The notes under the pieces are model-generated. The model had not been told where the DNA came from, made no database searches, and worked only from the letters and a program-made list of their open reading frames with translations. Source: a bacterium (GTDB taxonomy: Bacteria > Myxococcota_A > UBA9042). From it: 63,901 bases of DNA. Made by a program: the position numbers and the translations under genes. Of this stretch, positions 56,501-62,500 are shown piece after piece. Numbering within the stretch: position 1 is the stretch's first letter; the number at the start of each line of letters is the position of its first letter. The stretch is taken from positions 1-63,901 of the forward strand of contig JAUIAC010000004.1 in NCBI GenBank assembly GCA_030425545.1. The letters are read 5' to 3'.

Positions 56501-59500
56501 GCTACCACCCCTACTACAAGGAGTACTGGTACCCCGAGCACGGCACGAGCAAGATCCACCGCTACAACGCGCAGCTGAAGGAGACCGGCAGCTTCGACAT
56601 CGGCTTCTCGAGCGTCTACGCCATCACGGGTCACGTCAGCGCCAACGACGCGTACGTCGCGCGCTACTCGGGCAGCTCGTCGACCTCGCGCATCTACAAG
56701 ATCGAGGGCGGCACGTCGAACGTGCAGTGGACCAGCCCCTACATGACCACCTACCTGAGCGGCGTCGCGGCGGACGACGACTACGTCTACACCAACCGCT
56801 ACAACTCGCAGACCATCTACCGCCTGCTCCGCACCAACGGCACGCTCGACGGCACCTTCAGCCTCACCGGCCAGTGGTCGGGCAGCTCGATGTACGGCGG
56901 CCTCACCGTGGTGGGCAGCAAGCTCTACCGGGCCACGACGGACCGCTGGGTCTACCGCTACGACCTGAGCACGGGCGCCTTCGACGGCGTCATGTGGCAG
57001 GTGCCGGTGGCGCCCTACTCGTCGGCCTTCAACGGCACCGAGATCTGCTACGGCGACAGCAGCACCGCGCGCCGCATCTACTGCCACCCGACGCCGGCGT
57101 CCCACATCAACTTCACGCCGCGCCCGCTGGGCATGGACGTCAAGAGCAACGGCGGCGGCTTCCACCCCTTCCACAACGAGTACTGGTTCCCGCAGTGGTC
57201 GGGCGGCTGGGTGTGGCGCTACGGCATCAACAACACGCCGCTCGGCAAGTTCGACACCAAGCTGACGTCGACCTACCAGCTGTGGGGCGAGAAGAAGGAG
57301 GACTCCTTCTACACGGTTCAGTACAACTCCAACTCGTCGACCTCGCGGGTGCGCAAGCTCAAGGGCAAGACCAGCACGGTGCTGTGGACCGCACCGCCGC
57401 TCTCGTCCTACATGAGCGGCGTCGCCGCCAGCGATGACTACGTCTACGCCATGCGCTACAGCGGCAGCACCGTGTGGAAGCTCAGCAAGACCAACGGCAC
57501 GCTGATCGAGAGCTTCAACCTGAGCGGCTCCTTCTCGGGCAACAACCTCTACGGCGGCCTGGCCATCGAGAACAACAAGCTCTGGCGTGTCGACTCGAGC
57601 GGCTACACCTACCGCTACGACCTGACCACCAAGGCCTATGACGGCATCTCGCTGAAGATGTCGGTCAGCCCGCGCGTGCTCGCGTTCAACGGCACCGAGT
57701 TCTGCGTGTCGAACGGCTCGCTGGGCCAGGTGTACTGCTACGCCATCTACGACACCGAGAACGGCAGCGTGGACGAGGGCTGCGACGACGACGCCGACGG
57801 CTACTGCGACGACGACATGGTCATCACGCCCAACGGCACCAAGGTCACCTGCCCGAAGTCCAAGCAGACCTGCGACGGCAAGGAGTCCAACGGCTACTGC
57901 TACAAGGCCGTGAACACGGGCACCACGTGGCCGCAGGCCGAGCAGGCTTGCGACGACTGGGGTGGGCACCTGTCCTCCATCGAGAACTCGGGCGAGCAGG
58001 ACCTGGTCAGCTCCCTCGCGGCGAGCGCGTGCGGCAACATCAGCTACTGGATTGGCCTGCGGGACAACAACGCGGAGGGCTTCTTCAGCTGGACCGACGG
58101 CGTCGCCAACTCCTTCGACAACTGGAACACCAACGAGCCGACGTCGAAGACCAAGCTCGGCCTGTTCAAGGGCTCCACGCTCCTCGGCCCGACGCAGATG
58201 GCGCAGATCAACTCCTGGATCGGCACGCCGAACAAGGGCTGGAAGCTCTGCTACAAGAAGAGCGTCGACGGCGGCAACAGCAGCACCTTCCACAGCAAGT
58301 GCAACGGCAAGGGCGAGACGGTGACGGTCATCCGAGCCAACACGGGTCGCGTCTTCGGTGGCTACACCACCTACAGCTGGACCAACAGCTCGGGCTACCG
58401 CTCCGCGAACAAGTCGTTCCTCTTCTCCATCTCGAGCAACACCAAGCACGAGAACACGAACTCGAGCTACTCGATCTACACGAGCTCGAGCTACGGCCCG
58501 ACCTTCGGCGGCGGCCACGACCTGTACGTGAACTCCAGCCTGAGCGGCGGCTACACCTACTTGGGCCACAGCTACAACTGCAAGGTGGGCAGCTACGGCT
58601 CGAACCAGTGCCGCGACTACCTCGCGGGCAACTACAGCAGCTGGTCGATCACCGACATGGAGGTCTACTACGTCGACACGGTCGGGGTCTCGAACGGCCA
58701 GGACTACGTCGCGGCGGATCACACCGGCAAGTGGGCTGACGTGGCCAACAGCAGCCAGCTCAACTGCTACGTGTGCAAGCGCAAGCTCACGGCGGCGCAG
58801 TACGGCAAGGGCGACGACTGCAGCGACGACGACGCCTCGCAGAACCCGGCGACCCCCGAGGTCTGCGACGGCAAGGACAACAACTGCAACGGCGTGGTCG
58901 ACGAGGGCTGCGACGACGACCAGGACGGCTACTGCGACGCGACGATGCTCACCGTGGGCAGCCCGTCGATCTGCGTCAACGGCGGCGGGGACTGCGACGA
59001 CTACAACGTCAACATCAACCCGGGCAAGACAGAGAGCTGCCTGACCAACTTCGACGACAACTGCGACGGCTCCACCACCGCCATCAACGCGACCGGCTGC
59101 ACCAACCTGTTCTACGACAAGGACGGCGACGGCTACGGCACGAGCTCGTTCCAGTGCCAGTGCGCCGACCAGACCTGCCAGTCGGAGCCCTACAAGGAGA
59201 CCTTCGACAAGACCTTGACCGGGTGGACGTTCAACAAGTGCGCCGCCGGTACGCAGACCAACCCCACCAGCTGCTCGTCCTACTCGGGCACGCAGGGTTG
59301 GCAGCACGACTTGAGCGGCAAGTTCATGGCGGCGGGCAAGGGCGCGCTGTACTACGGCGACCCCAAGCTGGCGAGCTACAACTTCGGCAACACCGCCGGC
59401 ACGGCGCGCTCGGCCAAGTTCAAGGTGCCAGGCACCGGGTCGCCCAAGTTCAAGGCCTCCGTGTTCATGGGGGTCGACTCGGGCGCTAGCACCGACGTCT

Positions 59501-62500
59501 TCCAGATCCGCGTGCTCGACGCCACGGGCAAGCTGCTCAAGACCATCTGGACGAAGAAGGACGGCATCACCGACCACTTCCCCGGCTCGACGATCCTGTC
59601 GTCGACGCACAAGACCCAGCTCAACAGCTGGTACGGCGACGCCAACCAGGACTGGGCGCTGTGCTACCGCAAGAGCACGCACGGCGCGAGCTCGGGCACC
59701 TTCCACAGCCTGTGCGCGAACCGCGGCGCGACCATGACGGTCATCAAGGCCAGCACGGGCTACGTCTTCGGTGGCTACAACCGCAACCCCTGGACGCCGA
59801 GCAGCGGCTACAAGTCGGACACCGGCTCGTGGGTCTACTCGCTGACGCGGGGCACCAAGCACACGTACTACCGCTACTCGCAGTACGGCACCTACAACCA
59901 CACCAGCTACGGCCCGACCTGGGGTGGCGGTCACGACCTCTACATCAGCAGCAACATGAACAGCGGCTACACCAACCTCGGCTACACGTACCGCTGCCCG
60001 AGCGGCTACGGCTACGGCAACGGCACCTGCCGCGCGTGGCTGGCCGGCAACTACAGCAGCTGGAACATCCCGGAGATGGAGGTCTACGTCCGCGGCTCGC
60101 ACAACGGCTCGCTGATCAACAAGTGGAGCCACCTGGAGCTCGACGCCACCGAGTTTGCGGGCAAGGAGGTGTACCTCGAGTTCTACTTCAACACCGTCAA
60201 CAGCTCGAACAACAACACGCTCGGCGTCATCGTCGACAACGTCAGCGTCACCGACAGCACGTGCAACCTCTACACGGCCAAGAAGTCGGGTGACTGCGAC
60301 GACGACAGCGCGCTGAAGTACCCCGCGCAGGACGCGGAGATCTGCGACGGCGTCGACAACAACTGCAACGGCACCATCGACGAGCAGTGCGACGTCGACA
60401 AGGACGGCTACTGCGACGCCGACAAGCCCGTGTTCGACACCTACGCGTGCCCGAAGACCGGCCTCGCTGGCAGCGCCGCTTGCAGCAGCACGCCGGTGGC
60501 CAACCCGGTGTGGGACGGCAAGCGCATCAACCAGAACACCTACGGCGGCCACGGCGCGACCTGGCACCCCTACCGCAAGGAGTACTGGTTCAACAACTGG
60601 AGCAGCAACACGACCATCTACCGCTACAGCAAGGACTGGAAGTACCTCGGCGGCTTCAGCACCAGCACCTACTACTCGCGGGACATCGCTGCGGCGAGCA
60701 AGGACGACCACTACTTCACCGGCAGCTACTACAACTACCGCGTGTACAAGAAGACGGGCGCCACCAACTCGCAGAAGTGGCAGAGCGGGAGCATCGGCTA
60801 CTACATGGGCGGCGTCGCGGCGGACGACACGTATGTCTACGCCATGCGCTACCACCCGAGCTACCGCACGGTCTGGGTCTTCAACCAGAGCAACGGCAGC
60901 ACGGTGAAGTCGTTCAACCTCAGCGGAGAGTTTGGTGGCTCGGTCCACGGCGGCCTCGTCGCCCTGGACGGCAAGCTGCTCCGCGGCGGAGACGACCGCT
61001 GGGTCCGTGAGTACAACATCAGCAACGGCGCGTTCACGGGTCGGCGCTTCTACACGTCGATGGCGAACTACAACAGCTTCATCCTCGGCAACCGCAAGTA
61101 CTGCACGTCGTCGGGTGGCTCGGCCATCGACTGCTACGACCTGCTCGACACGAGCTGCAAGGGCGGCGACGACTGCAACGACAAGCAGGCCAACATCTTC
61201 CCGAAGGCGCCAGAGACCTGCGACGACGTCGACAACGACTGCGACAACACCGTGGACGAGGACTGCAACAAGGACGGCGACGGCTACTGCGCGACGACCA
61301 AGGCGGTCATCGGCACGCCGAAGGTCTGCCCGAAGGGTGGCGGTGATTGCGACGACAACGACAAGAACAAGAGCCCGGACTCGCAGGAGATCTGTGACGG
61401 CAAGGACAACAACTGCGACAAGGTCGTGGACGAGGCCAACGCCACCGGCTGCAAGACCTACTACTACGACGGCGATGTCGACGGGTACGGCGTGGCGTCG
61501 AACAAGCAGTGCCTGTGCGCGAAGACCGGGCTCTACTCCACCACCACGGCTGGTGACTGCGACGACACCTGCCAGGACTGCAAGCCGGGTGGCAAGGAGA
61601 TCTGCGACGACAAGAACAACGACTGCGACGGTGCCGTGGACGAAGGCTGCGATGATGATGGTGACGACTGGTGCGACGCGAACATGCAGACCATCGGCAA
61701 GCCCAAGGTGTGCCCGAACGGCGGCGGGGACTGCCATGACGGCCTGAAGACCCGCAGCCCCGGCGCCACGGAGCTCTGCAACAACATCGACGACAACTGC
61801 AACGGCATCACCGACGAGAACGCGAGCAGCTGGTGCACCGAGCCGGCCAAGAACGCCACCGCGGCGTGCGTGGCGGGCAAGTGCGTCAACATGGGCTGCG
61901 CGACGGGCTTCTACGACCTCAACAACACCATGGCTGACGGCTGCGAGTGCAACGGCGCGGACAAGTACGAGCCCAACAACACCTGCGCACAGGCGGCCCA
62001 CGTCGGCGGCACGCTGACCGACAAGTACAGCGGCGCCGGCACGGTCGAGTCCTTCGGCGGCATGATGGTCGAGGCCAGCGATGTGGACTGGTACAAGATC
62101 TACGCCCAGGACTCGTCGGACGGGGGCTCGTCGGCCTGCGACAACTACGGCGTGCGCGTGCGCTTCCTCAAGAACCCGGGCAACCGCTACCGCTTCAGCA
62201 TCTGGCGCGGGACCTGCCCGACCAGCGACACCCAGTCTGCGGACTGGTGGAAGGCTGGGCATGGCCGACACGGCAACCCGAGCAGCTTGAAGAAGTACGA
62301 CAACAACGTGTGCTGCGGTCAGACCGACTTCAACTGGTTCACCGGCTTCAAGTCCTACACCCGCAACTCCTACTCGAGCTACGACTCGGAGTACGGCGAG
62401 TGCAGCTGCCACACCAGCTACAGCACGTGGAGCACGCGTCCGTACTACAACTACGGTCCGAGCCAGGGCGGCGGTCCCTACGGTCGGTGGAAGAGCCAGT

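Follow-up and report, generated by a model that had tools for sequence, protein, structure and literature searches.

Evidence for a TLDc domain nested in a loop of a MAM-like beta-sandwich domain in a giant protein of Myxococcota

Introduction

Can a complete TLDc domain sit inside a loop of another folded domain, and does this occur twice in one bacterial protein? The question is raised by a 63,901-nucleotide stretch of DNA, referred to here as the window, which corresponds to positions 1-63,901 (forward strand) of contig JAUIAC010000004.1 in assembly GCA_030425545.1 (Myxococcota_A; UBA9042). An earlier note, made from the letters of the window alone, had proposed that region 59176-60265 encodes a jelly-roll (MAM-like) domain interrupted by a TLDc domain of about 170 amino acids (aa). 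It had also proposed that a second, independent TLDc insertion is present in the same protein, that both inserts derive from a duplicated cassette, and that selection has favoured a loop-displayed TLDc.

Most work on TLDc concerns its role as a cytosolic module of eukaryotes. Eukaryotic TLDc proteins are cytosolic, bind the V-ATPase and protect against oxidative stress (PMC8608904, PMC5614904), and these are the documented activities of the domain, in eukaryotes only (PMC8608904, PMC5614904, PMC12930195). Literature searches did not reveal any description of a bacterial or a nested TLDc domain.

Assignment of the insert to TLDc

Region 59176-60265 falls within a single open reading frame (ORF) of 6,062 aa on the forward strand (44551-62739). 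All peptides quoted in the earlier note were recovered in this frame, namely STDVFQIRVLDATG (nucleotides 59488-59529), WALCYRKSTHGASS (59653-59694), NYSSWNIPEMEVYV (60049-60090), RGSHNGSLINKW (60091-60126) and GVIVDNVSVTD (60223-60255). The inserted domain, designated TLDc copy 2, was delimited to positions 59569-60087 on the forward strand (aa 5007-5179) from Pfam, AlphaFold2 and Foldseek results. With an insert length of about 173-175 aa, the initial estimate of 170 aa was close. Short coil linkers surround the domain; the one preceding the first helix measures about 12 aa and the one following the last strand about 10 aa.

The insert alone (nucleotides 59566-60090) was matched by the Pfam family TLD (PF07534) with 83 bits (E=2.7e-23, model positions 5-167 of 170), and the whole product of region 59176-60265 with 81 bits, the gathering cut-off of the family being 24.5 bits. 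An AlphaFold2 model obtained from an alignment rich in TLDc homologs (model 1) gave predicted local distance difference test (pLDDT) values of 88-98 for the insert. With this model, Foldseek retrieved the TLDc crystal structures of NCOA7, zebrafish OXR2 and Skywalker with E-values of about 1e-8 to 1e-9. Template modelling (TM) scores, normalised to the target, were 0.83-0.88 for copy 2, with 0.85 to 7obp, 8ar9 and 4acj, of which 4acj is the OXR2 and 7obp the NCOA7 structure; the E-values of these matches lay between 4.5e-9 and 1e-8. Based on the Pfam score, the pLDDT of model 1 and the Foldseek matches, the insert is a complete, bona fide TLDc domain which is predicted to fold autonomously.

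An alignment of 18-19 TLDc sequences, including coral and diatom proteins, showed that residues F176, G199, G200, W206, G246, T248, G250-G252, H253, D254 and G291 are invariant. The core motif GPTxGGGHD is likewise invariant over the aligned bacterial, coral and diatom sequences. A pair of cysteines (YRC...TCR) was present, among the aligned sequences, only in the giant protein family and in stand-alone bacterial TLDc proteins.

The flanks as halves of a single host domain

The N-terminal half of the host was located at positions 59176-59568 on the forward strand (aa 4876-5006, with the profile match described below starting from aa 4870) and the C-terminal half at 60088-60264 on the same strand (aa 5180-5238). 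Both are delimited by profile and pLDDT, and the C-terminal half additionally by a weak Pfam match. The C-terminal half supplies the last three beta strands and ends in ...GVIVDNVSVTDSTC. The insertion point is the loop between the strand ending in ...IWTKKDG and the strand starting with ...KWSHLELD.

The joined flanks (190 aa) were compared by an exhaustive HMMER search with 1.84 billion representative proteins, yielding 507 matches at E<=1e-3 and 142 at E<=1e-10. Uninterrupted domains were matched with E-values down to 1e-52. Among the best 150 matches, 279 domain instances in 145 proteins crossed the junction contiguously, and their length differed from that of the joined flanks by a median of -5 residues (range -24 to +17). 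A profile of 182 nodes, built from 70 uninterrupted homolog domains, aligned with the giant protein in two collinear parts. Nodes 7-129 covered aa 4870-5006 (E=7.5e-31) and nodes 124-180 covered aa 5180-5238 (E=9.9e-18), and the 173 residues between these two matches are exactly TLDc copy 2. With such E-values, a resemblance by chance is dismissed.

The same picture emerged when the window segment was aligned by MAFFT with five nested relatives and 45 uninterrupted homologs (A4): all 45 homologs displayed one gap, spanning query positions 132/133-311/312. Mixing TLDc-only rows into such an alignment spread residues of the homologs over the TLDc columns, and these rows were removed. In a further alignment of 50 sequences (A5), consisting of the 45 uninterrupted homolog domains and the five nested proteins, the gap was displaced by about 11 residues. 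The loop between K127 and W317, which are both conserved, measures 5-15 aa (median 9) in the 45 homologs, compared with 183-205 aa in the six nested proteins. Since both flanks are collinear on one profile and uninterrupted homologs cross the junction, the flanks are considered as one domain.

A second AlphaFold2 model (model 2) was obtained from a homolog-rich alignment in which just five sequences cover the TLDc part. Both flanks were predicted as all beta strands, with pLDDT values of 85-97 for the N-terminal flank and block-mean values of 91-98 for the C-terminal one (residues 321-360). The packing of both host halves into one sandwich is supported indirectly by this prediction and by the structural matches of model 2 given below. 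Taken as a whole, these data are best explained by a genuine nested architecture, in which a TLDc domain lies inside a loop of one MAM-like beta-sandwich domain and has been conserved there. This reading, which the earlier note had put forward, is held with high confidence.

Neither in the giant protein nor in the six frames of the window was an internal paralog of the host domain found. A jelly-roll-looking segment (CQDFSTG...GLDNVCVVKG) was noticed at positions 47100-47600 (aa ~850-1010 of the giant protein). It was not matched by phmmer, by the profile of 70 homologs or by Pfam, and is not detectably related to the host family.

Family of the host domain

The relationship of the host to known families was addressed at the level of both sequence and fold. 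In alignment A5, 46 of the 50 sequences matched the Pfam family InhA-like_MAM (PF20773; best E 1.5e-10) and ten matched the canonical MAM family (PF00629; best E 8.3e-8). When ten relatives were scanned singly, two of them, P0128 (35.1 bits) and P0159 (31.1 bits), were above the PF20773 gathering score of 26.9 bits. For PF00629, no match was obtained with the flanks of the window, and P0154 reached 22.2 bits with a cut-off of 26.4 bits. A sequence search of the PDB with the joined flanks returned nothing credible (all E>0.6), and a word-indexed protein search recovered only an ortholog fragment (P0001), so that the family came to light through the exhaustive HMMER search alone.

At the structural level, Foldseek with model 2 retrieved, after TLDc structures, human meprin alpha and beta, InhA2 of Bacillus anthracis, the adhesin domains of gingipains K1 and K3, legume lectins and calreticulin. 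These matches reached probabilities of up to 0.99-1.00, and their alignments of 320-390 columns cover both flanks. Meprin beta (4gwm) was matched with E=8.7e-4 and a probability of 1.00, and InhA2 with 4yu5 and 4yu6. The gingipain adhesins (4itc, 3m1h) gave target-normalised TM values of 0.53-0.55, which are modest scores. Meprin alpha and beta both contain a MAM domain. As the flanks of the window themselves miss the Pfam cut-off, the family name rests on transitive homology and on the predicted fold, and 'jelly-roll, MAM-like' appears to be a fair description of the host.

Conservation in related proteins

The split host with a TLDc domain in the gap was found in P0024 (6,157 aa), P0027 (5,406 aa) and P0038 (6,517 aa), with gaps of 169-185 aa, as well as in P0001, a TARA Oceans fragment of 62% identity. 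It was also found in two metagenome-assembled genomes (MAGs) labelled as uncultured Myxococcales, which matched over the full 363 residues with 57% identity. The sources of the relatives carrying the nested domain are ENA metagenome assemblies and, in one case, an NCBI record. Five further lineages share the split domain. In four of them, all represented by complete or near-complete giant orthologs from Myxococcales or metagenomes, the other TLDc copy described below (copy 1) is present as well, nested in a C-type lectin domain wherever this was examined; the fifth is a fragment.

A small family of giant proteins of Myxococcota has conserved the nested arrangement, and both nested arrangements have persisted over the long term in orthologs whose identity has dropped to 40-60%. 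We infer that there may have been selection for a loop-displayed TLDc, as had been suggested.

A second TLDc domain within a C-type lectin domain

The other nested TLDc announced by the earlier note is indeed encoded by the same ORF. TLDc copy 1 occupies positions 58156-58674 on the forward strand (aa 4536-4708) and is matched by Pfam TLD with 98.7 bits (E=4.8e-28). It lies within a C-type lectin domain, of which the N-terminal part (57871-58155, forward strand), ending in ...NWNTNEPTSKTK, is matched by positions 3-78 of the Lectin_C model. The C-terminal part (DTVGVSNGQDYVAADHTGKWADVANSSQLNCYVCKRK; 58675-58788, forward strand) is recognised once the insert has been removed in silico, upon which the match extends over positions 3-107 (E=5.6e-15).

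Copy 1 follows directly behind the motif 'NEPT', which is read as occupying the position of the EPN motif in the long loop of C-type lectins. The same location, directly after the long-loop (G)EP(N/S/T) motif, was observed in P0024, P0027 and a Myxococcales MAG. The lectin domain of the window displays WAD in place of the usual WND motif, and canonical binding of Ca2+ and sugar may for this reason have been lost.

Origin of the two copies

Pairwise alignment of both copies of the window showed 54% identity across 170 aa, with a similarity that does not extend beyond the domain borders. Their shared ending, on which the earlier note had based the proposal of a duplicated cassette, does not speak for it. 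The pattern NYSSW..MEVY represents the last TLDc strand, which is conserved in all aligned TLDc domains, and its E and V are near-invariant even when eukaryotic sequences are included. Duplication itself is nevertheless plausible, since the two copies, at 54% identity, resemble each other more than they resemble the nearest stand-alone bacterial TLDc domains (43-49%).

No direct repeats were found at the borders of the insert, the only similarities being internal ones between the TLDc copies and among MopE repeats. No compositional anomaly of the insert was detected either: the G+C content at third codon positions (GC3) is uniform at 0.97-0.98, without sign of recent transfer. Given the lack of bordering repeats and of any compositional anomaly, the insertion event is old.

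The nested arrangement would have arisen once, in the ancestor of the giant-protein family. The most likely route would be an intragenic duplication of the TLDc-coding segment into a second host, the other copy having been placed in the long loop of the C-type lectin domain at the apparent position of the EPN motif. Both host halves and the insert would since then have been under purifying selection.

Alternative explanations

Several observations weigh against the proposed architecture and its history. The joined flanks of the window scored 15.6 bits (E=0.011) against InhA-like_MAM, which is below the cut-off, and this sub-threshold match is confined to the C-terminal flank (PF20773 model positions 111-163 of 191). 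The flanks were poorly predicted in model 1 (pLDDT 27-83), the alignment of which contained few flank sequences, while the TLDc part is weaker in model 2, so that neither model is confident throughout. In both models the predicted TM score (pTM) was 0.62-0.66, leaving the relative orientation of the domains uncertain. Finally, a neighbour-joining tree of the TLDc domains mixes copy 1 and copy 2.

The last observation bears on the relation between the copies. When the two copies of one protein are compared, their identity is 49-61% in four of five cases (the window protein and the orthologs P0024, L001 and P0027) and 32% in P0038. The copies of P0027 are 61% identical, compared with at most 57% for orthologous pairs, and those of L001 are 56% identical. 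Because the identity in P0027 exceeds that of orthologous pairs and the tree mixes the copies, gene conversion or repeated duplication of the nested copies may have taken place, for which these values give a hint.

The alternative that survives best is that a TLDc gene fragment was captured twice independently, possibly from eukaryote-like sources, without any duplication. The two hosts are unrelated to each other, as are the sites of insertion, the copies share just 54% of their residues, and the nearest non-orthologous relatives include coral and diatom proteins, all of which would be in line with such captures. Against this stand the identities within proteins of 49-61% in four of five cases (32% in P0038), to be compared with 43-49% to stand-alone bacterial TLDc domains, and the uniform GC3. 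In the neighbour-joining tree, moreover, all copies of the giant family fall in one bacterial cluster, although the stand-alone proteins P0002-P0005 nest inside it. Two separate captures are thus regarded as unlikely.

A second alternative considers the MAM-like host as a broken relic, destroyed by the insertion of TLDc, with flanks that are mere linkers. The host halves are somewhat less conserved than TLDc, with mean pairwise identities among the six nested proteins of 40% and 41% for the halves and 50% for TLDc, and the flanks of the window are below the Pfam cut-off. Yet no complete ortholog has lost either half, even at identities as low as about 35%, and both were predicted with high confidence in model 2. 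The window has also retained the near-invariant residues of the host family, namely W42, LYYG58-61, G71, G75, D107, K127, W317, G329, F338, N346, G350, D354 and C363. The sole near-invariant column of A5 that is changed in the window is E101, where the replacement by D is conservative. In view of the retention of these residues, a relic is very unlikely.

That the flanks could be separate, unrelated small domains arranged in tandem around TLDc, as the pLDDT of 27-83 in model 1 and the weak Pfam match to the C-terminal flank only would allow, is hardly credible, given that one profile of uninterrupted homologs covers both of them collinearly (nodes 7-129 and 124-180), that 279 homologous domains cross the junction, and that a deeper alignment led to all-beta flanks with pLDDT values of about 85-98 and to matches with single-domain MAM-like structures.

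The giant protein and its genomic neighbourhood

Besides the C-type lectin domain, the MAM-like domain and both TLDc copies, the giant protein contains MopE-type, Dicty_CTDC and propeller-like repeats. Pfam matched 27 stretches with the Cys-rich MopE repeat ('putative metal-binding') and also identified Dicty_CTDC repeats. Propeller-like units with the pattern 'SYGGGY(H/N)..(E/K)YWYP(E/Q)W' were observed at positions ~53500-57700 (aa ~3000-4400). These 'SYGGGY..YWYP' units gave weak matches to the propeller families PQQ_2, Glu_cyclase_2 and ANAPC4_WD40. The N-terminus of the protein (MRRIG...LVMFASC, with Cys29) reads like a lipoprotein signal peptide. Mis-assembly as the source of the giant ORF is unlikely, as the architecture is common to six independent assemblies.

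The window is high in G+C (0.64-0.76), with 0.73-0.76 at positions 30001-40000 compared with 0.63-0.70 in the remaining part, and the GC3 of the giant gene amounts to 0.97. The giant gene is overlapped on the reverse strand by two long ORFs, at 46753-54060 (2,435 aa) and 54451-62811 (2,786 aa). Rather than genes, these almost certainly represent artefacts of extreme codon bias, spurious antisense ORFs of such length resulting from the GC3 of 0.97.

The giant gene is closely preceded by two tandem tRNA-Gly(GCC) genes (43788-43972) and closely followed by a tRNA-Leu(TAA) gene (63170-63257). Other genes of the window code for a Ser/Thr protein kinase in which a PEGA domain is weakly matched (41413-43455), a protein of 1,140 aa with Ig domains of the ASH/HYDIN/Cep192 type (24825-28247) and a TPR protein (1,236 aa; 16011-19721). 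The neighbouring genes are typical of myxobacterial content and have no evident link to the nested TLDc.

Discussion

The TLDc domain nested in the MAM-like host shares with OXR1, NCOA7, TBC1D24/Skywalker, mEAK7/TLDC1 and TLDC2 the family PF07534, the predicted fold, the motif GPTxGGGHD and the final ...E-V strand. Whereas the TLDc of the eukaryotic matches obtained here is a C-terminal module, the TLDc of the window is bacterial, probably extracellular and nested, and carries an additional pair of cysteines. Further counterparts are stand-alone bacterial TLDc proteins (P0002-P0005, P0176 and P0177), the TLDc domains of which are 43-49% identical to the copies of the window. All of these proteins display secretion or sorting signals. 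P0002-P0005 share the cysteine pattern of the window TLDc. In these proteins, unlike in the window, TLDc is located at or near a protein terminus and never within another domain.

The host family is homologous by profile to PF20773 and PF00629, and resembles in the model the MAM domain of meprins, InhA2 and the cleaved-adhesin jelly rolls of gingipains. The host of the window differs from members of PF20773 and PF00629 by its interruption of 173 aa and by its score below the Pfam cut-off, and it belongs to a divergent, mostly Cys-flanked bacterial subfamily.

Domain insertion is common and is reported for about 20% of multidomain proteins, in a survey where TLD, MAM and lectin hosts are not named (PMC13114784). 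As in domain insertion in general, a complete domain interrupts a loop of its host and both predicted folds are kept. The presence of paralogous inserts in two different hosts of one protein is unusual.

An extracellular location of the giant protein is plausible, considering that it has a lipoprotein-like signal and Cys-rich repeats and that its TLDc domains have secreted relatives. Among these relatives, P0176 (2,157 aa) combines a signal peptide, an N-terminal TLDc domain, the 'SYGGGY' propeller repeat of the giant protein and a sorting domain of the type IX secretion system (T9SS). The TLDc-bearing P0177, from Brocadiia, has the annotation of a PEP-CTERM protein. As judged from their domain composition, TLDc and the 'SYGGGY' propeller co-occur in apparently unrelated bacterial surface proteins, as illustrated by the giant protein and P0176. 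The nested TLDc domains would then not be cytosolic V-ATPase regulators as in eukaryotes, a partner of the eukaryotic type being disfavoured by the likely extracellular location. They could instead serve in binding, each fixed in place on one of two lectin-like scaffolds so that composite recognition surfaces result, although, to our knowledge, no TLDc ligand outside the V-ATPase has been identified. A more far-reaching proposal is that secreted bacterial TLDc domains are ancient extracellular ligand-binding modules which were grafted on the long loop of a C-type lectin and on a MAM-like hairpin, where they would build composite recognition sites. This is put forward as a speculation of low probability.

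By itself, the nested TLDc is a real and conserved but modest oddity among domain architectures, and no long-standing question is resolved by it alone. It does indicate that a bacterial branch of TLDc, which is probably secreted, is present in at least three lineages: Myxococcota, the carrier of the T9SS sorting domain and Brocadiia. It also indicates that insertion into loops of two unrelated hosts is compatible with the TLDc fold, which has been stably retained in both. In a divergent MAM-like bacterial family with hundreds of members, one loop can take an insert of 170-180 aa. As a clean natural example, the nested case may be of use for domain-insertion engineering, and the nested fragment of about 360 aa would represent a tractable construct for probing extracellular binding by TLDc. 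Should the ligand-binding proposal be true, a ligand of TLDc on a giant myxobacterial surface protein could reveal the biochemical activity of the TLDc fold.

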